Source of the DNA: Escherichia phage EK99P-1 | Sequence record: NC_024783.1 | DNA length: 44,332 nucleotides | Direction: 5' to 3' (one strand) | Translations under genes and position numbers: made by a program | Notes under the pieces: model-generated | Told to the model about the DNA's origin: nothing | The model's input: only the letters and a program-made list of their open reading frames with translations | Databases searched by the model: none | Shown here: positions 1-44,332 of the stretch, piece by piece | Position numbering within the stretch: position 1 is the first letter of the stretch | How the letters are laid out: each line of letters begins with the position of its first letter

Positions 1-55
1 TATAATCCCACTTAGATGGCAGGGCCGTCTCCTATGTTGCCGATGGTCGGCGCAT

Positions 56-5065: not shown

Positions 5066-5080
5066 TGGCCCCCTTTTATT
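5055..5080 (+). terminator. rho-independent terminator after Rz1
   Basis: GGGGGCC-gtaat-GGCCCCC hairpin followed by TTTTATT, between convergent genes. Confidence 0.6.
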
Positions 5081-5843
5081 AGCGCGGAATACCGCAGATT
5101 TCGTTTAACGTCTTCACGTCCAGTGCCACCGCCGTGGACTTCGGCTTGTCCGGGTATGGAATAAACTGTTCCACTTCAGGCCACGCCTTGATCAGCTTCT
5201 TATCGGTATTGTGCATATCCAGCACGCCGGTCACAGTCAGCTTGAATGCGTCATACTTCGCACGCAACTCGCGGCGGGCCTTGTCGTTACGGTCCAGGCG
5301 CTTGCAGAAATCATGGTCCGCCGGGTAGTCTATACGACCGCATGACTTATATATCGGCAGCGCTTTCCCATCCTCGTCCACTTCGCACACAGAAGCCAGC
5401 ATTACTTCTTCGTACCCTGGTACAATATCGCCGAGATCTGGAGATAGCGTATTCATGTATTTATATTCCCAGTATCCGCGATGTACTCGGTATTGTCGTC
5501 CGTCACCGCTCAATGACAGTGTGCGCACATTTCCGCCCGCGTTGATTTCGAAAGTGGCGTCGTAAACGCTGCCGATGCCTTTTGGGCGGTCAGCATTATA
5601 TCTATACGTCGCCTTGTTGGTGTATACGCTTACTCCGTACATCTGCGACGGGTCATCGCCGATTGCTTTAATGCGCGCGAGTAGCTCGGCGAAAGTGCGA
5701 ATGCCTTCCGGCATACAGTCCAGCGTAATGGCGTACGCCAGGTCGCGCGAGTCCATCATGATGGATTTGGCTTCGGTCGCGATTTCATGGTCGCGCAGGA
5801 TGTTAGCCAGAATCTGGTTTTTAATGTCTTTCGTCAGTCTCAT
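5079..5843 (-). CDS. hypothetical protein (minus-strand moron in head module)
   Basis: 254 aa from the ATG at 5843 (RBS AAAGAGGA). Opposite strand to all flanking structural genes. No family recognised by eye. Confidence 0.6.
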   Translation of the reverse strand: MRLTKDIKNQILANILRDHEIATEAKSIMMDSRDLAYAITLDCMPEGIRTFAELLARIKAIGDDPSQMYGVSVYTNKATYRYNADRPKGIGSVYDATFEINAGGNVRTLSLSGDGRQYRVHRGYWEYKYMNTLSPDLGDIVPGYEEVMLASVCEVDEDGKALPIYKSCGRIDYPADHDFCKRLDRNDKARRELRAKYDAFKLTVTGVLDMHNTDKKLIKAWPEVEQFIPYPDKPKSTAVALDVKTLNEICGIPR

Positions 5844-5857
5844 TTGTGTGTCCTCTT

Positions 5858-6019
5858 TTAGTGGTTGTATAATTCGCCGCGTGCGTCGGCATCTTCCATT
5901 TGGTGTAGTGCGTGTTTCTGGTCCTGGCAAGGAATCCAGCGTTCCTCTAATTTATGCCAGAAGTAAAACACCCCGTTATCCAGCTTAATCTCGGCAATAC
6001 CGTTATTGAAAGTTAGCAT
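5858..6019 (-). CDS. hypothetical small protein (first gene of moron)
   Basis: 53 aa from the internal ATG at 6019 with RBS GAGGG, immediately downstream of a promoter-like element. Confidence 0.45.
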   Translation of the reverse strand: MLTFNNGIAEIKLDNGVFYFWHKLEERWIPCQDQKHALHQMEDADARGELYNH

Positions 6020-6036: not shown

Positions 6037-6078
6037 TTGGTATGCAACCAATATACTGCAACCAATCCACCAATGCAA
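6037..6078 (-). promoter_or_regulatory. sigma70-like promoter for the moron, with downstream palindrome
   Basis: Minus strand: -35 TTGCAT (6073-6078), 17-nt spacer, -10 TATATT (6050-6055), then TTGGT-tgcat-ACCAA (6037-6051). Contains two ATTGGTTGCA boxes. Confidence 0.45.
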
Positions 6079-6168
6079 GCAAATTTTGCGATTATTTTTA
6101 TCGCTGATAATATTAGAAGCGTGAAGTCGAGCGGGTGGCCTGCTCTGCCACAATCCCAGGGGGATAGC

Positions 6169-11326: not shown

Positions 11327-11640
11327 TTGAGGCGGCGCGACGCTTTTATGGCCCGCCGCCACCCTCCGAAGATTTAGCCGCGAGTTTATGGGGCGCGACA
11401 CCTGAAGACGTGTGTCCGCCCGTTGCGCTGTGGCCCGACAACGCGAAGGTAGTCGCAGTCTTCACAGATTGCTCCACGCAATGGCGTACCGGATTTGGCG
11501 GGGCATACGGCATCGACTACGGCGTACTGGAATGGTTATTTAAGATGCACGGCATCGAAAACGCGCAACGTGCGTTTAAAGATATCAAGCTAATGGAACG
11601 CGTTGCGCTGGATGAAATGGCGCGGCAGAACCCCGCATAA
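10964..11640 (+). CDS. tail assembly chaperone GT fusion (programmed -1 frameshift product)
   Basis: The -1 frame is open from 11317 to the stop at 11640. A slip at 11317-11323 joins G to the downstream frame. Confidence 0.6.
11317..11323 (+). other. slippery heptamer A_AAA_AAC for -1 ribosomal frameshift
   Basis: gaA AAA AAC TAA at the end of G. The -1 frame continues open for 105 codons. Confidence 0.6.
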
Positions 11641-11956
11641 CGAAGCGGGACAGGCGGGAAGTACCGTTTTGTCCCGCCTCTGTAAAACCGCATATCTAAT
11701 CACTTTCATTGCATAAACTCAAAGCGGGACAGGCGGGACGTCCCGTTTTGTCACGCCCTGTAAATGTGCATACCTATGCAGATTTCGTGCATAAACCAAA
11801 CGGGACAGAAAGCGGGACAAACAAGAGGCGGGACAAAGCGGGACAGCACCCCGTCCCAGCCAGTGCTGCCGCGGTTTTCAGCCGATCGGGACAGCGGGAC
11901 AGCACCCCAGTCTTTCAGACTAGACGGGGGTCAGTGGCCCCCCTCGTCTGAGACTG
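11641..11956 (+). repeat. GCGGGACA iteron region with terminal long hairpin (copy A, extended)
   Basis: About 10 GGGAC(A) units on one strand, several short GGGAC..GTCCC palindromes. The last 169 bp (11788-11956) are repeated at 39166-39334. Confidence 0.8.
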
Positions 11957-22128: not shown

Positions 22129-22157
22129 AGTATTACACCGCTCAGCCAGGATTGCAA
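22129..22157 (-). promoter_or_regulatory. putative promoter for the lipoprotein-RBP operon
   Basis: Minus strand: ATTGGTTGCAA box with TTGCAA as -35, 17-nt spacer, weak -10 AATACT. Confidence 0.35.
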
Positions 22158-22178
22158 CCAATTTATGAGGATTCAGCT

Positions 22179-24935: not shown

Positions 24936-24965
24936 ACTATAGTGCAACCAACCTATTGGTTGCAA
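24936..24965 (-). promoter_or_regulatory. putative promoter with palindromic box pair
   Basis: Minus strand: TTGCAA (-35), 18-nt spacer, TATAGT (-10). The perfect inverted repeat TGCAACCAA-cct-a-TTGGTTGCA spans the -35 and spacer. Confidence 0.45.
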
Positions 24966-26844: not shown

Positions 26845-26878
26845 AATATAATGCAACCAATATAATTACGCAACCAAT
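26845..26878 (-). promoter_or_regulatory. putative sigma70-like promoter with two boxes
   Basis: Minus strand: ATTGGTTGCGT (-35 TTGCGT), 17-nt spacer containing a second ATTGGTTGCA, -10 TATATT. Confidence 0.45.
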
Positions 26879-29801: not shown

Positions 29802-29835
29802 ACTATACCGCTATGCGACCAATTCAGCAACCAAT
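29802..29835 (-). promoter_or_regulatory. putative sigma70-like promoter with two boxes
   Basis: Minus strand: ATTGGTTGCTG (-35 TTGCTG), 17-nt spacer containing ATTGGTCGCA, -10 TATAGT. Confidence 0.4.
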
Positions 29836-33331: not shown

Positions 33332-33421
33332 TTTCCAATTCCTCATTTTCACATGTATCGGGGTTATTGGAAGCCACCCCGTTCGGCTTGGTTGCTAATC
33401 TACTTGGTTGCGCCTGAGCGG

Positions 33422-33664
33422 TCAAGCATTTTCGTTAAAAAGATTTCGGGTAACGTAGTTGGTAGCGTTATCGATCCAGCTTAACGGCGGGCGGTCGATG
33501 TTCTTCTTCACCCAGTCGACGGCAGCGTCACTATACCCGTCATCAAGCCAGCGGGTTGGATGGCGAATCATCCACGCCACCATTAACACGCCTTGCACGC
33601 AATGCAGGATAAAGCCCAGCGCGCCGAGCAAAAACATCAATAAGATTGCGAATACTTTATTCAT
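33422..33664 (-). CDS. small membrane protein
   Basis: 80 aa with two hydrophobic helices (ILLMFLLGALGFIL, GVLMVAWMI). Confidence 0.45.
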   Translation of the reverse strand: MNKVFAILLMFLLGALGFILHCVQGVLMVAWMIRHPTRWLDDGYSDAAVDWVKKNIDRPPLSWIDNATNYVTRNLFNENA

Positions 33665-35575: not shown

Positions 35576-36061
35576 TTAATCTTCCAGTTCGAAATAAGTT
35601 TCGACGATTTCTTTAAGTTCTGTGTGGAAGTCTTCGACGTCTTCATCTTCCAGCTTGGCGATTGATTTGATCTCGAACGATTCCAGCAGGTCGTCAAATT
35701 CGTCGTTCGCGTCGTCGTCGTCACCACCAGCGATAATAGCGGCATATTGTTTGATTTCGTCGCGCATCTCAGCCAGCGGATCGGCATCTTTCTTGCCTTT
35801 GCCTTTCGCCGGGGCTTTTTTACCCTTAGCTGGTTTTACGTCATCAGCGTCATCGTCGTCGTCATCTTCTACGACTTCTTTTTTGGCTTTCGCCGGAGCT
35901 TCGTCGTCAGCGTCGTCATCTTCTACGACTTCTTTTTTCGCCTTAGACGGCTTCTTGTCTTCCTGCTTGCCAACGGCAGCGCCAACGGTTTCATAATGCT
36001 TAGCGATGGTTTCCAGTGCTACTACGCCGCGAGTAATCAGGTTTACGATTTGTTCAAACAT
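35576..36061 (-). CDS. highly acidic repeat protein (possible DNA mimic / anti-restriction candidate)
   Basis: 161 aa, runs of D/E, internal duplication AKKEVVEDDDADDEAPAK / AKKEVVEDDDDDDADDVKPAK. First gene downstream of the leftward early promoter. Confidence 0.5.
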   Translation of the reverse strand: MFEQIVNLITRGVVALETIAKHYETVGAAVGKQEDKKPSKAKKEVVEDDDADDEAPAKAKKEVVEDDDDDDADDVKPAKGKKAPAKGKGKKDADPLAEMRDEIKQYAAIIAGGDDDDANDEFDDLLESFEIKSIAKLEDEDVEDFHTELKEIVETYFELED

Positions 36062-36259: not shown

Positions 36260-36288
36260 ATATTAGATTGGTTGCAGAATGGAGTCAA
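36260..36288 (-). promoter_or_regulatory. leftward early promoter (PL-like)
   Basis: Minus strand: TTGACT (-35), 17-nt spacer containing TGCAACCAAT, TAATAT (-10). About 190 nt of leader before the ATG at 36061. Confidence 0.5.
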
Positions 36289-36299
36289 CAACTAATTTC

Positions 36300-36334
36300 A
36301 AAAAAAAAAGCGCCGAGGCAAAATGCGACGGCGC
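36300..36334 (-). terminator. minus-strand intrinsic terminator between the divergent promoters
   Basis: Plus strand A10 then GCGCCG-13 nt-CGGCGC. On the minus strand this is hairpin plus U10. Confidence 0.45.
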
Positions 36335-36406
36335 TAACCAATAAGAGACAATGAGACGGGAATTATTATTACACGCGTGCGCGCCCGTTTCAATATATCA
36401 AAGGAG

Positions 36407-36452
36407 TTGACACCCTGCTGTTTTAGGTGTAGTTTCGTTGGTCATTAACCAA
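36407..36452 (+). promoter_or_regulatory. rightward early promoter (PR-like) with operator palindrome
   Basis: TTGACA (36407-36412), 17-nt spacer, TAGTTT (36430-36435), then TTGGT-catta-ACCAA (36438-36452) before the RBS. Confidence 0.55.
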
Positions 36453-36466
36453 CCGGGGACAGAAAA

Positions 36467-36796
36467 ATGAATATCAACGACGCAATCGAAATGTTAACTA
36501 AGACTGTTTGCAGTGAAACAAGCCGGTCCTGGGCGTATACCGATGCCGTGGGGGCGGTGCTATTTGAAATCGAACGCCTGCGACTCACCGAAAAAGAATT
36601 GCGCGCGAAGCTGGAATTACTCAACGGTACGGCAGCCAGCAAGCTGCAAAAGCACAATGAAGAAATGGAAGAATACAAAAAGCAGGTTATCCGTCTACGT
36701 GAGGAAGGTAAATCCTGGGCTATGATCGCCGAGCTAACCGGAATCAACCAGAGCACTGTGCGCTCCTGGGTACGCAATAATAAAACTTCCAAATAA
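36467..36796 (+). CDS. small HTH DNA-binding protein (candidate early regulator)
   Basis: 109 aa. C-terminal helix-turn-helix GKSWAMIAELTGINQSTVRSWV. First gene after PR. Confidence 0.55.
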   Translation: MNINDAIEMLTKTVCSETSRSWAYTDAVGAVLFEIERLRLTEKELRAKLELLNGTAASKLQKHNEEMEEYKKQVIRLREEGKSWAMIAELTGINQSTVRSWVRNNKTSK

Positions 36797-36806
36797 GGCT
36801 ACGACC

Positions 36807-39071
36807 ATGAGTTTAATTAAATTCGCCGTAACAAGACCCGCTAAAAAAGGCGAAAAAGCCAGGGCGGAAAACCTCCAGATGACCACCGATGAATTTTTCG
36901 AATTTATCAAAGATGCGAAAGAAATCTCATCGGTGCATATCAACAAGACGGAGGATAAAGCCGAGTATGCGCGCCGCAAGCGTAAGGCCGATGGCATCGT
37001 GGCATATACCAGTGACGGACTTCGCCGCAAGACCAGTGCGGTGGACCGCTCGATCCTGTTCTTTGATATTGACCGCACCGACACCCGCACCCTACGCCGC
37101 TGCCGTAAGGCGTTCATTGACGCGGGTCTGGAACACGTATTTCACACCACAACCGGCGACCGTCACCCACTGAAAGGCGGCACGCGTTGCGCCCGTTTCC
37201 TGGTGTTAACTGACAAGCCTGTACCGGCGGAAGACCTGGGCCGCGCCCAGTATGCCTTGTTAGCCCAACTGGGTCTGTCCGATGTGGACTTCGACGATTG
37301 CACGAAAGACACAAACCGCCTTATGTACCTGCCACACCAGCAATCTGTCATTAAATGCCACTACGGCAAGCGCGCCCGCGTCCGTCGTCTGCTCCGCCTG
37401 GCGGACAGGCTGGGAGTTGAGAAAGAGGAAGTGCGCCGCGAACTAACCCAGGGTGATGACGGCATGGCGGACGGTATTCTGGATTGGTGCTTCCAGGCAG
37501 GATTCGAACCGCTGTCGTCCGGTCGTGGTTATGAAGTTCCATGCCCGAACGAACATCTGCATAGTGGCGAAGGGTCCACCGCTATCATGGTTAAGGATGG
37601 CGAGATCCGTTTCAAGTGTATGCACACCGGCAACGAGTGTTGCTCGGAACTGAATAGACACCAGCACCTGGCGCTACGTCTCATCGGGATACCGGACCAC
37701 CTGAACGTCGAGCCGCACAACATGTCCCGTAAGCAAATCGCCGCCATCCTCCCAGGGCTGGACGACGAGGAAGTCGAATCCTTATATGAACATATTGTTG
37801 ATGCGGTTGGCGACGGCGAAGAATACGGCGTGTGCACCGATGCGGATCTGGATAACGAGCCGGTTGCGCTGTTCAGCAAGCACGACCCGATTATCGAGGG
37901 GTTGATTAACTTTAAATCAACTTGGTATATGGCTGGCGAGTCGAACATCGGTAAGTCTTTCTACGTGCTGGGGCAAATGGGTGCGGTTGCCGCGGGGATT
38001 CCGTTCGGTGGCGCGAAGGTAGTCCAGTCTCATTGCTTCTATTTCGATGCGGAAGGTGGCGAAGCCTCTAACCAGCGTAAGGAAGCATTGCAGATCAAAT
38101 ATGAGCACGATCTCGACAAGCTGCACATTATCGACCTGCAAACTCGCGGCTGGGATATCACCAGCAAATCCGGCTTGCGTGAAGTTATCAGCTTTATCAA
38201 CCGCACCGCTAACGGCGAACCGGTTGGCCTGGTGGCATTCGACTCCCTCAACCAGACTGTTGCGTTGCGGTCCGCCGATTCTAAACCGTTCGACGAGAAC
38301 AACGCCAGCGATATGGGCGAAGTGGTCAAAGCGCTGAAGGCCATTGCGGAAAATACAGGCGGCAGTGCGGGCGTCATCCACCACCCGGCGAAAGGTGCAA
38401 ACGGCAGCAGATCTCCCCGTGGGTCCGGCGCGCTGCATGGTGCTGTCGATTCCGCGTTCTTCCTGGAACAGCCGGACGACAATCAGCCTGGTCAATTGAA
38501 CCTGTATCACGAAAAGGCACGTAACGGCATCAAGCAAGCGCCGCGCGGCTTCGTCCTGCTCAAGTGCAAAGTTAAGGTAGATCTCCGCAAGTCCGAGGCG
38601 TTCGAATCGCACCAGTCCACCAGCACCGGGCCTGACTTCGGCGATGTGGTTGCCGGTTGGGACGTCAAGCCGATCGCATCCACGCCACGCGACGAGACTC
38701 TGTATCTCGTACCGGTCGCCCTGGCACCGTTCGCCATCGAACAGGCGAAGGCGGCGGGCAAAGCAGCAGTTAAGGACGAGAATGCCGCAGGACCGCGCAA
38801 CGAAAAAGAGAAAGTGCTTTATGCGGCGCTGGAAAAACTGATGGAAGATAACCCGGACCATACCGGATTCAGTAAATCGGCAATCGTCCGCCAGGCGGGA
38901 TTGGCAAAAGGTGGCACATCGACGAAGGCAATAGACGATATGGTGGAGCGCGGCGTGCTAGGTTTTTATACAGATCCGCATACCGGGGCCATCTATGGGT
39001 CGTCGAATATCGTCATAAAAACGAATATACCCATCACGCTTTCGGCGACCGATGACGACCTTAAAGATTAA
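36807..39071 (+). CDS. DNA primase / replicative ATPase (primase-helicase-like)
   Basis: 754 aa. N-terminal primase-like region and central P-loop GESNIGKS. Large early replication protein. Confidence 0.55.
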   Translation: MSLIKFAVTRPAKKGEKARAENLQMTTDEFFEFIKDAKEISSVHINKTEDKAEYARRKRKADGIVAYTSDGLRRKTSAVDRSILFFDIDRTDTRTLRRCRKAFIDAGLEHVFHTTTGDRHPLKGGTRCARFLVLTDKPVPAEDLGRAQYALLAQLGLSDVDFDDCTKDTNRLMYLPHQQSVIKCHYGKRARVRRLLRLADRLGVEKEEVRRELTQGDDGMADGILDWCFQAGFEPLSSGRGYEVPCPNEHLHSGEGSTAIMVKDGEIRFKCMHTGNECCSELNRHQHLALRLIGIPDHLNVEPHNMSRKQIAAILPGLDDEEVESLYEHIVDAVGDGEEYGVCTDADLDNEPVALFSKHDPIIEGLINFKSTWYMAGESNIGKSFYVLGQMGAVAAGIPFGGAKVVQSHCFYFDAEGGEASNQRKEALQIKYEHDLDKLHIIDLQTRGWDITSKSGLREVISFINRTANGEPVGLVAFDSLNQTVALRSADSKPFDENNASDMGEVVKALKAIAENTGGSAGVIHHPAKGANGSRSPRGSGALHGAVDSAFFLEQPDDNQPGQLNLYHEKARNGIKQAPRGFVLLKCKVKVDLRKSEAFESHQSTSTGPDFGDVVAGWDVKPIASTPRDETLYLVPVALAPFAIEQAKAAGKAAVKDENAAGPRNEKEKVLYAALEKLMEDNPDHTGFSKSAIVRQAGLAKGGTSTKAIDDMVERGVLGFYTDPHTGAIYGSSNIVIKTNIPITLSATDDDLKD

Positions 39072-39165
39072 ATTTTGCGCGCATTGGTTGCCATTTTGGG
39101 TGTTTTTATCTGGTCGTATTGGTTGCCGTGTAGTGTAGATATAATGAATAGTTATGCAATAAAAC

Positions 39166-39334
39166 TGCATAAACCAAACGGGACAGAAAGCGGGACAAAC
39201 AAGGGGCGGGACAAAGCGGGACAGCACCCCCGTCCCGCCCCGGATGGCGCGGCCTGGAGAGGAGCGGGACAGCGGGACAGCACCCCAGTCTTTCAGACTA
39301 GACGGGGGTCAGCGGCCCCCCTCGTCTGAGACTG
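39166..39334 (+). repeat. GCGGGACA iteron plus long hairpin element (copy B)
   Basis: 169 bp directly after the primase gene. Both flanks near-identical to 11788-11956, 34-bp central core divergent, one loop substitution in the hairpin. Confidence 0.8.
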
Positions 39335-39493
39335 CATAAAATCCGGGATTGCAAAATACACGGCAGCATGTTGCGGATTGCGGTCGTCGCTGAACTAGGC
39401 AACCAATGCGAGATGCGGAATGGTGGGTGGAAAATGCAGTTTGCAGTCACAGCAGATAGCGATCAACTTTTTCATGCGCGTGATTAATATTGG

Positions 39494-39535
39494 TTGCATT
39501 CAATCCGGCACCCGGCTATATTGGTTGCACACCAA
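39494..39535 (+). promoter_or_regulatory. sigma70-like promoter with downstream palindrome
   Basis: ATTGGTTGCAT (-35 TTGCAT, 39494-39499), 17-nt spacer, TATATT (39517-39522), then TTGGT-tgcac-ACCAA (39521-39535) and RBS GAGGA. Confidence 0.5.
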
Positions 39536-42714: not shown

Positions 42715-42776
42715 TTGCTTTACTTGCAACCAACTATCAGACTATACTGCGACCAATCAACGAGAGGAGTAATACT

Positions 42777-44295: not shown

Positions 44296-44326
44296 CCCAG
44301 CCTGCCGATTTGGTGGGCTTTTTTGT
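44296..44326 (+). terminator. putative terminator at window end
   Basis: Imperfect GC-rich hairpin followed by CTTTTTTG. Confidence 0.4.
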
Positions 44327-44332
44327 GCCTGT

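Follow-up and report, generated by a model that had tools for sequence, protein, structure and literature searches.

The window considered here is the whole stretch of DNA that was analysed, 44,332 nucleotides from Escherichia phage EK99P-1 (sequence record NC_024783.1), which corresponds to IMG/VR contig 2706795331_000001. Along its length it shares about 91% identity with Dhillonvirus genomes such as SSL-2009a, B2, KarlBarth and bob, and the phage is a virulent Dhillonvirus (SSL-2009a/HK578-like), a siphovirus of E. coli. According to the annotation of Dhillonviruses, a plus-strand structural operon is broken near 5-6 kb by a minus-strand moron, a minus-strand replication and recombination block occupies about 24-36 kb, and a plus-strand block begins with a small ORF labelled "transposase/resolvase/gamma", followed by a helicase-primase gene. 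In the window, a gene for a 109-aa helix-turn-helix (HTH) protein precedes the helicase-primase gene, and a predicted TTGACA-17-TAGTTT promoter, kept in all Dhillonvirus copies, lies upstream of it (Table 1). The annotations of Dhillonvirus relatives contain no lysogeny module, integrase or immunity genes. Because the phage is virulent, with no lambda-like PR or immunity logic, the name "PR-like" that was initially given to this promoter holds as an analogy only.

Directly past the -10 of this promoter stands the palindrome TTGGT-N5-ACCAA, which the window contains at 6037-6051, 36438-36452 and 39521-39535 only. Three copies compare with 0.05 expected, and none of 100 shuffles reached three. 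The spacing is exclusive, as TTGGT and ACCAA are found in the window at N5 and at no other distance between N0 and N11. The preliminary description had placed a -10 hexamer beside each palindrome and had read the arrangement as operator-like. The hexamers are present at all three sites, with their coordinates verified, and the placement is as described: each palindrome either overlaps the -10 by 2 nt or starts 2 nt past it, at the start region of what are plausible, predicted sigma70-type promoters. The palindromes also lie 13-16 nt upstream of start codons, directly before Shine-Dalgarno sequences. Their offset from the -10 varies, with the site at 36438 differing by 4 nt from those at 39521 and 6037.

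All three palindromes recur at the same loci in five of the six other complete Dhillonvirus genomes, and their copies in IMG/VR include just two single-base variants, TTGGTCATTAGCCAA and TATATTGGTCGCACACCAAC. In other genomes, the sites corresponding to 6037 and 39521 have a 22-nt string, CTATATTGGTTGCACACCAACA, in common. These two sites are consequently one duplicated cassette and not independent, which leaves effectively two independent site classes. Each class can be broken down into smaller parts. At 39521 the palindrome consists of a forward copy of ATTGGTTGCA (39520-39529) followed by cACCAAc, and at 6037 the same box is followed by tACCAAc; in both, the left arm is the start of the 9-mer TTGGTTGCA. 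At 36438, the right arm, ttAACCAAc, is a degenerate reverse box (36444-36452) situated 8 nt beyond the -10. The palindromes thus hold up as genuine, conserved features, but each is a special case in which a box of 9-10 bases is doubled.

This asymmetric box, (A)TTGGTTGC(A), is the most over-represented word of the genome. The full form ATTGGTTGCA occurs nine times against 0.1 expected and, together with the iteron AGCGGGACAG, heads the list of over-represented words in a scan of 10-mers. The word ATTGGTTGC, with 14 copies against 0.48 expected, is also among the most over-represented, and the 9-mer TTGGTTGCA has 11 exact copies and 25 with at most one mismatch, against 10.2 expected. Of 19 copies of the core TTGGTTGC, 15 are intergenic, in a genome of which 6.6% is intergenic (P = 5e-15). 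These intergenic copies fall in the non-structural blocks, at the moron, or directly downstream of the helicase-primase gene. Of 24 sites, 10 have a strong -10-like hexamer no more than 12 nt away, compared with 2.9 +/- 1.6 at random positions, with the proviso that some predicted -10 hexamers are palindromic and their strand is ambiguous. Where a regulon of three sites had been envisaged, the window instead holds some twenty copies of the asymmetric box at about ten promoters. The proposal of shared co-regulation survives in part: a cis-element common to several promoters implies that they are co-regulated, but not through three sites alone.

Table 1. Features of the window that bear on the box family (strand given as +, - or, for a symmetric site, a point).
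Feature	Coordinates	Strand	Description
Palindrome 3	6037..6051	-	TTGGTTGCATACCAA on the minus strand; 2-nt overlap with the -10 of the moron promoter
Moron promoter	6043..6082	-	TTGCAT(6078-73)-17-TATATT(6055-50)
Lipoprotein/cor-like gene promoter	22129..22161	-	Predicted; box 22153-22161 gives -35 TTGCAA, 17 nt, AATACT
Predicted promoter	24936..24965	-	TTGCAA-18-TATAGT; divergent boxes 24943-24951 (-) and 24956-24964 (+)
Predicted promoter	26845..26877	-	Box 26869-26877 gives -35 TTGCGT; box 26852-26860 abuts -10 TATATT
Promoter upstream of lar-like gene	29802..29834	-	Predicted; -10 TATAGT
ssb promoter	33388..33425	-	Predicted TTGACC-17-TAGATT; boxes 33404-33412 and 33388-33396 bracket the -10
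Leftward early promoter	36260..36288	-	Predicted TTGACT-17-TAATAT; box 36267-36276 in spacer beside -10
HTH/helicase-primase operon promoter	36407..36435	+	Predicted early rightward; TTGACA(36407-12)-17-TAGTTT(36430-35)
Palindrome 1	36438..36452	.	TTGGTCATTAACCAA; starts 2 nt past -10 TAGTTT (intervening cg)
109-aa HTH protein	36467..36796	+	Candidate box reader; variable N-terminal part, long helix 21-79, C-terminal HTH 84-108
Helicase-primase	36807..39071	+	AEP PrimPol, RecA/DnaB-like core, C-terminal winged helix (model); alternative candidate reader
Two boxes, TTGGTTGCC	39084..39127	+	Right after helicase-primase stop; upstream of TATAAT (39140-45) and iteron cluster
Box copy, TTGGTTGCC	39398..39406	-	Between iterons and gene 39551 promoter
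Gene 39551 promoter	39490..39522	+	Predicted; TTGCAT(39494-99)-17-TATATT(39517-22)
Palindrome 2	39521..39535	+	TTGGTTGCACACCAA; overlaps -10 TATATT of gene 39551 promoter by 2 nt
Predicted promoter	42720..42756	+	TTACTT-17-TATACT; reverse box 42725-42733 in spacer

The boxes overlap the -35, the spacer, the flank of the -10 or the +1 of about ten predicted promoters. Usually there are two per promoter, in either orientation and at promoters of both transcription directions, and the pairs form direct, convergent or divergent repeats with spacings of 9 to 37 nt. At six promoters, the box (at 39490, 6074, 26869, 29826, 24956 and 22153) itself supplies the -35, TTGCAn, 17-18 nt from the -10. For example, the distal box 39490-39498 provides the TTGCAT of the gene 39551 promoter, and box 29826-29834 the TTGCTG of the promoter of the lar-like gene, where a box variant (29814-29822) occupies the spacer. 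The moron promoter has three boxes in direct repeat, at 6074-6082 (TTGCTTGCA, which gives the -35 TTGCAT), 6057-6065 and 6043-6051. Other copies lie in the spacer or abut the -10 (6057, 24943, 26852, 29814, 36268 and 33404) or follow the -10 (39521, 6043, 33388 and 42748), the last of these being a variant, 42748-42756, directly past the -10 of the promoter at 42720. Promoters with a near-consensus -35 (TTGACA, TTGACT or TTGACC) have boxes solely in occluding positions. In relatives, the leftward early promoter carries two abutting boxes.

Comparison between phages separates the box from the sequence around it. At the gene 39551 promoter, 14 sequences agree fully in both boxes and in the CACCAACA that follows but differ freely in the 17-nt spacer between the boxes, a pattern that amounts to a phylogenetic footprint. 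The moron promoter is likewise conserved as a cassette, and homology stops directly past ACCAACA. The genes behind it differ, being Nmad5 and a 53-aa ORF in the window, a RusA-like gene in SO-1, and others elsewhere.

Six more divergent relatives, all metagenomic (L020, L021 and L023-L026), were retrieved through homologs of the HTH protein. They keep the synteny, their helicase-primases are 65-70% identical, and in every one of them ATTGGTTGC again ranks with the most over-represented 9-mers. The HTH-gene promoter of each of the six reads TATATT-N8-10-(T)GCAACCAA(T/C/G), with a single reverse box standing where the window has ttAACCAAc. The left arm at this promoter is TTGGC in two of them, GTGGT in one and absent in three, and no perfect TTGGT-N5-ACCAA was found anywhere in the six. 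These relatives retain the box at the HTH-gene promoter without the palindrome; what is conserved is therefore the asymmetric box, and the palindrome is peculiar to the core clade. A fixed dimer is consequently not indicated. Phage CHD5UKE2 is the one lineage with neither box nor palindrome at the HTH gene's own promoter; there, the palindrome is gone and the 5' part of the gene has been replaced, with all other boxes kept.

The box also extends beyond the Dhillonvirus-like phages. It is among the most over-represented words of Edwardsiella phage eiAU, with at least 21 copies against about 2 expected (GTTGGTTGCA occurs eight times), and it is over-represented in Serratia phage Tsm2 as well, with 12 copies where 1.2 would be expected. 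Phage eiAU has the same promoter architecture, TTGGTTGCAt-17-TATAGTTGGTTGCA. In Dhillonvirus-like phages the box is preceded by A, as opposed to G in eiAU and Tsm2. Box numbers do not depart from chance in the Jerseyvirus LPSE1, in SaI_NFG_5577, a phage of Salmonella, or in K1G and 590B, two Kagunaviruses of E. coli. These four phages have replication proteins in common with the box-bearing phages, and the lack of a box despite this indicates that the box is lineage-specific and not dictated by the host. Among box-bearing phages, the location kept most widely is at or just past the 3' end of the helicase-primase gene, where a cluster is present in the window, L021, L023, L025, eiAU (7-8 copies) and Tsm2 (four copies, inside the gene). 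A scan of IMG/VR for tandem boxes was swamped by unrelated repeats of giant-virus contigs.

Among the products that might read the box, the 109-aa protein has the only recognisable DNA-binding domain in about 20 small ORFs scanned with Pfam and PHROG. Its C-terminal HTH matches HTH_23 (E 6e-7) and Sigma70_r4_2 (E 2e-6), both above the Pfam cut-off. The structural model (pLDDT 86) consists of a short helix, a single helix of 59 residues and the HTH; a fold search with the HTH model gave generic HTH matches alone, at E > 0.5. Across homologs, the last 60 residues are near-invariant and the N-terminal 45 are swapped, as would be expected of a domain that must keep recognising some twenty sites. 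Boxes are present in all 13 HTH-bearing genomes or contigs examined. The GCGGGACA iterons are missing from three of these 13 (L023, L025 and L026), which have both the protein and the boxes, and this excludes the iterons as an obligatory target of the protein. In CHD5UKE2 the protein is much diverged (36% identity overall) and the boxes are unchanged.

The proposal that this protein is the regulator is upheld in that it is the sole recognisable small DNA binder of the window, but eiAU and Tsm2 carry the box with no homolog detectable by tblastn or by a conserved-domain HMM in six-frame translations of their complete genomes. In some phages the box is therefore independent of that protein, and the assignment is unproven. 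When all non-structural proteins were profiled across phages with and without the box, none matched its phyletic pattern. The XRE-type protein encoded at the same locus in eiAU and Tsm2 was rejected as a common reader, since it is found in the box-less LPSE1 and SaI_NFG_5577 and is absent from Dhillonvirus. As judged from these sequence comparisons, the HTH protein is the leading candidate for reading the box in Dhillonvirus-like phages, at slightly less than an even chance. The rest of the probability may be divided between the helicase-primase, a phage protein that has escaped recognition, and a host factor.

We consider it somewhat probable that a trans-acting protein uses the boxes as its operator and thereby co-regulates the non-structural promoters, the HTH protein being the likeliest reader in Dhillonvirus-like phages. 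The three palindromes belong to a genome-wide family of one asymmetric cis-element. Two of them, of the form TATATTGGTTGCAyACCAAC, represent a forward box followed by a partial reverse box, and at the HTH-gene promoter a degenerate reverse box has gained a symmetric left arm. The box marks essentially all predicted non-structural (early and middle) promoters, the moron in the head module, and the region just past the helicase-primase gene. A sequence-specific DNA-binding protein would read every box as an independent unit and so co-regulate these promoters; in Dhillonvirus-like phages, the 109-aa protein would do so via its near-invariant C-terminal HTH. The geometry of the boxes favours occlusion of RNA polymerase, which would entail temporal shut-off and, should the reader be a product of the HTH/helicase-primase operon, negative feedback on that operon. 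The boxes vary in position, orientation and spacing and overlap the spacer, the -10 flanks and the +1, a pattern that suits occluding, independent units better than an activator of fixed geometry.

The strongest competing explanation, which we nevertheless regard as unlikely, is that the box is the site of a replication initiator, comparable to a DnaA box or an iteron. It would mark an origin by the helicase-primase gene and also occupy promoters, which would let the initiator link replication to early transcription and hold its own operon in check. Either the helicase-primase itself or the HTH protein, as loader of the helicase-primase, would be the reader. The most conserved location of the box, beside the helicase-primase gene, suggests such an origin function, and in every box-bearing phage the repeats are indeed adjacent to the gene of the putative initiator. 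Further, a box or palindrome lies on the promoter of the helicase-primase operon, and the model of the helicase-primase combines a PrimPol domain and a RecA-like core with a C-terminal winged helix, an architecture that resembles P4 alpha and N15 RepA, proteins that bind their own origins. Rep proteins of iteron plasmids bind iterons as monomers and, as dimers, an inverted repeat at the rep promoter; here too, an inverted-repeat version of the box is found on the promoter of the operon encoding replication proteins. Like DnaA boxes and iterons, the box is an asymmetric 9-mer used in both orientations, clustered beside a replication gene and with extra copies on promoters. However, most copies in the window are at promoters far from what is only a putative origin, and the origin-like region is already taken up by another repeat family, the GCGGGACA iterons. 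The winged-helix region shows no special conservation among box-bearing phages and is most divergent in eiAU, and on these grounds it was rejected as the conserved reader. The helicase-primase of SaI_NFG_5577 is 42.6% identical, yet that phage has no boxes.

Marginally less likely again is that the box is a positive promoter element of the MotA type, one that replaces or extends the -35 of a middle class of promoters and is read by an activator or a sigma-remodelling factor. The arrangement TTGGTTGCAn-17/18-TAnnnT, with its weak -35 TTGCAn, occurs at at least six promoters of the window and at several in L021, L023, L025 and eiAU, and the HTH domain exceeds the Pfam cut-off for Sigma70_r4_2. 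The six promoters that have a box as their own -35 would also fit an activator, a dual-function protein or a sigma-appropriation model. In phage T4, the MotA box has a fixed position and orientation. The box of the window resembles it as a phage-specific 9-bp element that supplies or replaces the -35 ahead of a sigma70-type -10, in a virulent phage and at promoters other than the late ones. In contrast to the T4 element, second copies stand in the spacer, at the -10 or at the +1, some of them reversed and at variable distance, which is atypical of activators. The near-consensus -35 promoters, with boxes solely in occluding positions, also argue against positive action, and no MotA or AsiA homologs were found in Pfam and PHROG scans of the small ORFs.

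The strict form of the original proposal, in which the product of 36467-36796 binds the 15-bp palindrome as a dimer at exactly three promoters and regulates its own synthesis, appears doubtful. It draws on three perfect palindromes whose exclusive N5 spacing sets the half-site centres one helical turn apart, on their conservation in core Dhillonvirus genomes, and on CHD5UKE2, which lost the palindrome along with the 5' part of the gene; in the structural model, the long helix ahead of the HTH could form a coiled-coil dimer. Against it, divergent relatives that keep the DNA-binding end of the protein have no palindrome, two of the three sites are one duplicated cassette, the palindrome arm is part of a box found about 20 times as a single asymmetric unit, and boxes pair in direct, convergent and divergent arrangements, spaced by 9 to 37 nt. 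The Cro/CI operators of lambdoid phages are 17-bp dyads, six in number, that overlap the -35, -10 and +1 of divergent early promoters. They are similar to the sites described here in that short sequences cover the -35, -10 and +1, the gene that comes first behind one such site encodes the candidate regulator, and feedback on its own operon is expected. They differ from the box, an asymmetric unit of about 20 copies at about ten promoters in a virulent phage, and the 109-aa protein, with its HTH_23 or sigma region 4-like domain, does not have the Cro/CI fold.

Rather improbable is a host reader, that is, a DNA-binding protein conserved in Enterobacterales and exploited by these phages. Such a protein could account for a box common to phages of Escherichia, Sodalis, Edwardsiella and Serratia that have no candidate regulator in common, and for the failure of any phage protein to match its phyletic pattern. 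However, the related E. coli phages K1G and 590B are without the box, for which reason a host-determined box was rejected; the Salmonella phages LPSE1 and SaI_NFG_5577 lack it too, and the base preceding the box varies by phage clade, A as opposed to G. No E. coli factor is known to us that has the box as its site. The half-site ATTGGT is in common with PdhR, but the operator consensus of PdhR/LldR-type GntR proteins is ATTGGT-N3-ACCAAT, and TTGGT-N3-ACCAA is absent from the window and from six other genomes, where N5 alone occurs. Sigma-54 promoters have GG and GC elements at a fixed -24/-12 spacing; in the box GG and GC are 3 nt apart, and abutting boxes, offset by 9, miss this spacing by one. 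The CytR octamer (GTTGCATT), NtrC, Tus/Ter and marbox sites were rejected by inspection, as their consensuses do not fit in sequence or spacing.

Very improbable, finally, is that the palindromes act as 5'-terminal RNA hairpins that stabilise mRNAs or modulate translation, because although they sit just upstream of Shine-Dalgarno sequences and the natural A>G variant in L018 would retain a G-U pair, their folding energies (-6.3, -3.0 and -3.8 kcal/mol) are no better than those of shuffles (z -0.4 to +0.35), the predicted start, some 7 nt past the -10, is internal to the palindrome and would leave the left arm untranscribed, most boxes occupy -35 or spacer positions that are not transcribed, and an Rfam scan of the whole window gave no match. 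A likeness to the promoter-early stem-loop (PeSL) of T4-type phages is nonetheless seen at the moron and gene 39551, where a conserved promoter cassette with a small dyad precedes exchangeable small genes and homology ends right past ACCAACA. Unlike PeSLs, the dyad of the box is weak as RNA, the full cassette is found at two loci only, and the box also occurs singly.

The remaining point of comparison for a DNA operator is provided by the stoperators of cluster A mycobacteriophages. These are 13-bp sites that point in the direction of transcription and to which the immunity repressor (gp71 in L5) of a temperate phage binds. The phage box, which is multi-copy, asymmetric and mostly intergenic, is stoperator-like in being a short site (9-10 bp here) in many copies in short intergenic regions, and in the monomer-type reading that this implies. 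It is unlike stoperators in occurring in both orientations and on core promoters, in a phage without a lysogeny module. Overall, the arrangement would work in the manner of the operator sets of phage regulators. By analogy, stoperators would be the closest system in copy number and asymmetry, DnaA boxes and iteron/inverted-repeat pairs in distribution over an origin and promoters, T4 MotA boxes in substitution of the -35, and T4 PeSLs in the link to exchangeable genes. Since the box fails the defining features of each, we assign it to none of them. A search of the literature on the box sequence and on Dhillonvirus promoters or transcription found nothing relevant.

We speculate, as a possibility with the odds against it, that one box of 9-10 bp could be both the origin-proximal site of an initiator and the operator of nearly all non-structural promoters. 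The box is conserved in virulent siphoviruses of three or more genera, namely Dhillonvirus, Eiauvirus and that of a Guernseyvirinae member infecting Serratia. Such a phage counterpart of DnaA-box logic could conceivably tie the initiation of replication to the early-to-late switch, through non-homologous readers in each lineage or through a conserved factor that has gone unrecognised.

Dhillonviruses are common E. coli phages that are represented in the BASEL collection and used in therapy and in studies of defence systems. One box labelling about ten promoters amounts to a map of their early and middle regulon, including the moron and the variable accessory genes, and it yields a concrete candidate regulator and a handle for engineering. 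The promoter cassettes that carry the box appear to be junctions at which accessory genes are exchanged. Further, that eiAU and Tsm2 retain the box but have no detectable homolog of this candidate raises the question of how reader and site co-evolve.

The HTH protein (36467-36796, plus strand; 109 aa), the candidate reader of the box, an asymmetric element on about ten predicted promoters, varies unevenly along its length. Between lineages (window 36467-36600; L007 20200-20649), its N-terminal 45 residues have been swapped for unrelated sequences, while the C-terminal 60 residues retain at least about 84% identity. In the Dhillonvirus CHD5UKE2, the protein is 149 aa long, and a recombination break lies immediately 3′ of the promoter -10. 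The model of the helicase-primase encoded next (36807-39071) comprises an AEP PrimPol, for which the cyanophage S-2L PrimPol is the top PDB match, together with a RecA/DnaB-like core and a C-terminal winged helix; a conserved Cys/His cluster and an acidic DDDLxD tail complete it.

The region between the divergent early promoters (36300-36393) holds several elements of its own (see table). A promoter-like site and a strong terminator on the minus strand could together produce a conserved transcript, about 55 nt in length, the predicted sequence of which includes the box-like ATTGGTTAGC; a search of Rfam returned no match for it. The conserved GACAATGAGAC element is found in distant relatives too, with tandem copies in L024. 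Further leftward, a leader of about 190 nt separates the leftward early promoter from the start of the gene for an extremely acidic protein in which KAKKEVVEDDD motifs recur; this protein may be a DNA mimic or an anti-restriction factor.

Features in the window, including those read with its ends joined
Feature	Position	Strand	Context
Promoter-like TTGGTG-17-TATAAT	44310-44315 to 1-6		across joined ends; directly upstream of small terminase gene
Terminator	44299-44319		upstream of TATAAT (1-6) when ends joined
Moron	5079-6019	minus	Nmad5 (nucleotide modification associated domain 5) protein and 53-aa ORF
Predicted scaffold/head-gene promoter, TTGCGA-16-TAATAT	6086-6113	plus	
Iteron cluster 1	11640-11900		between tail chaperone and tape-measure genes
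161-aa extremely acidic protein	35576-36061	minus	first sizeable gene of leftward early operon
Strong terminator, GCGCCG-N13-CGGCGC + T10	36300-36335	minus	between divergent early promoters
Conserved GACAATGAGAC element	36347-36357		between divergent promoters
Leftward promoter-like site, TTGAAA-17-AATAAT	36393-36365	minus	precedes terminator 36300-36335
Iteron cluster 2	39170-39330		directly after helicase-primase gene

The GCGGGACA(G/A) iterons form two clusters, designated 'region A' and 'region B' in the annotation of the Dhillonvirus SO-1, and a near-identical stretch of about 130 bp holds the iterons at both. The majority of the 16 genome-wide copies of GCGGGACA lie inside these clusters, and the iterons are absent from the relatives L023, L025 and L026. 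The 7-mers CGGCAGC and CGGCAAC, at about 50 copies each (2.5-3 times the order-3 Markov expectation), are chiefly intragenic and occur on both strands; codon or composition effects may account for their excess, and CAACGGCAAC is likewise in excess in the box-less phages K1G, 590B and SaI_NFG_5577.

Possible promoters of structural and packaging genes were also identified. With the window ends joined (44299-44332 to 1-6), the promoter-like sequence spanning them may act as a late promoter or drive the packaging operon. The moron, a gene insert whose Nmad5 protein has a Pfam match at E 1e-57, sits behind a promoter cassette that fronts different genes in other Dhillonviruses. The neighbouring predicted scaffold/head-gene promoter contains, within its spacer, the dyad GCGAT-N7-ATCGC, and promoter and dyad together are nearly invariant across genomes. 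This dyad may be an operator for another, perhaps late, regulator.
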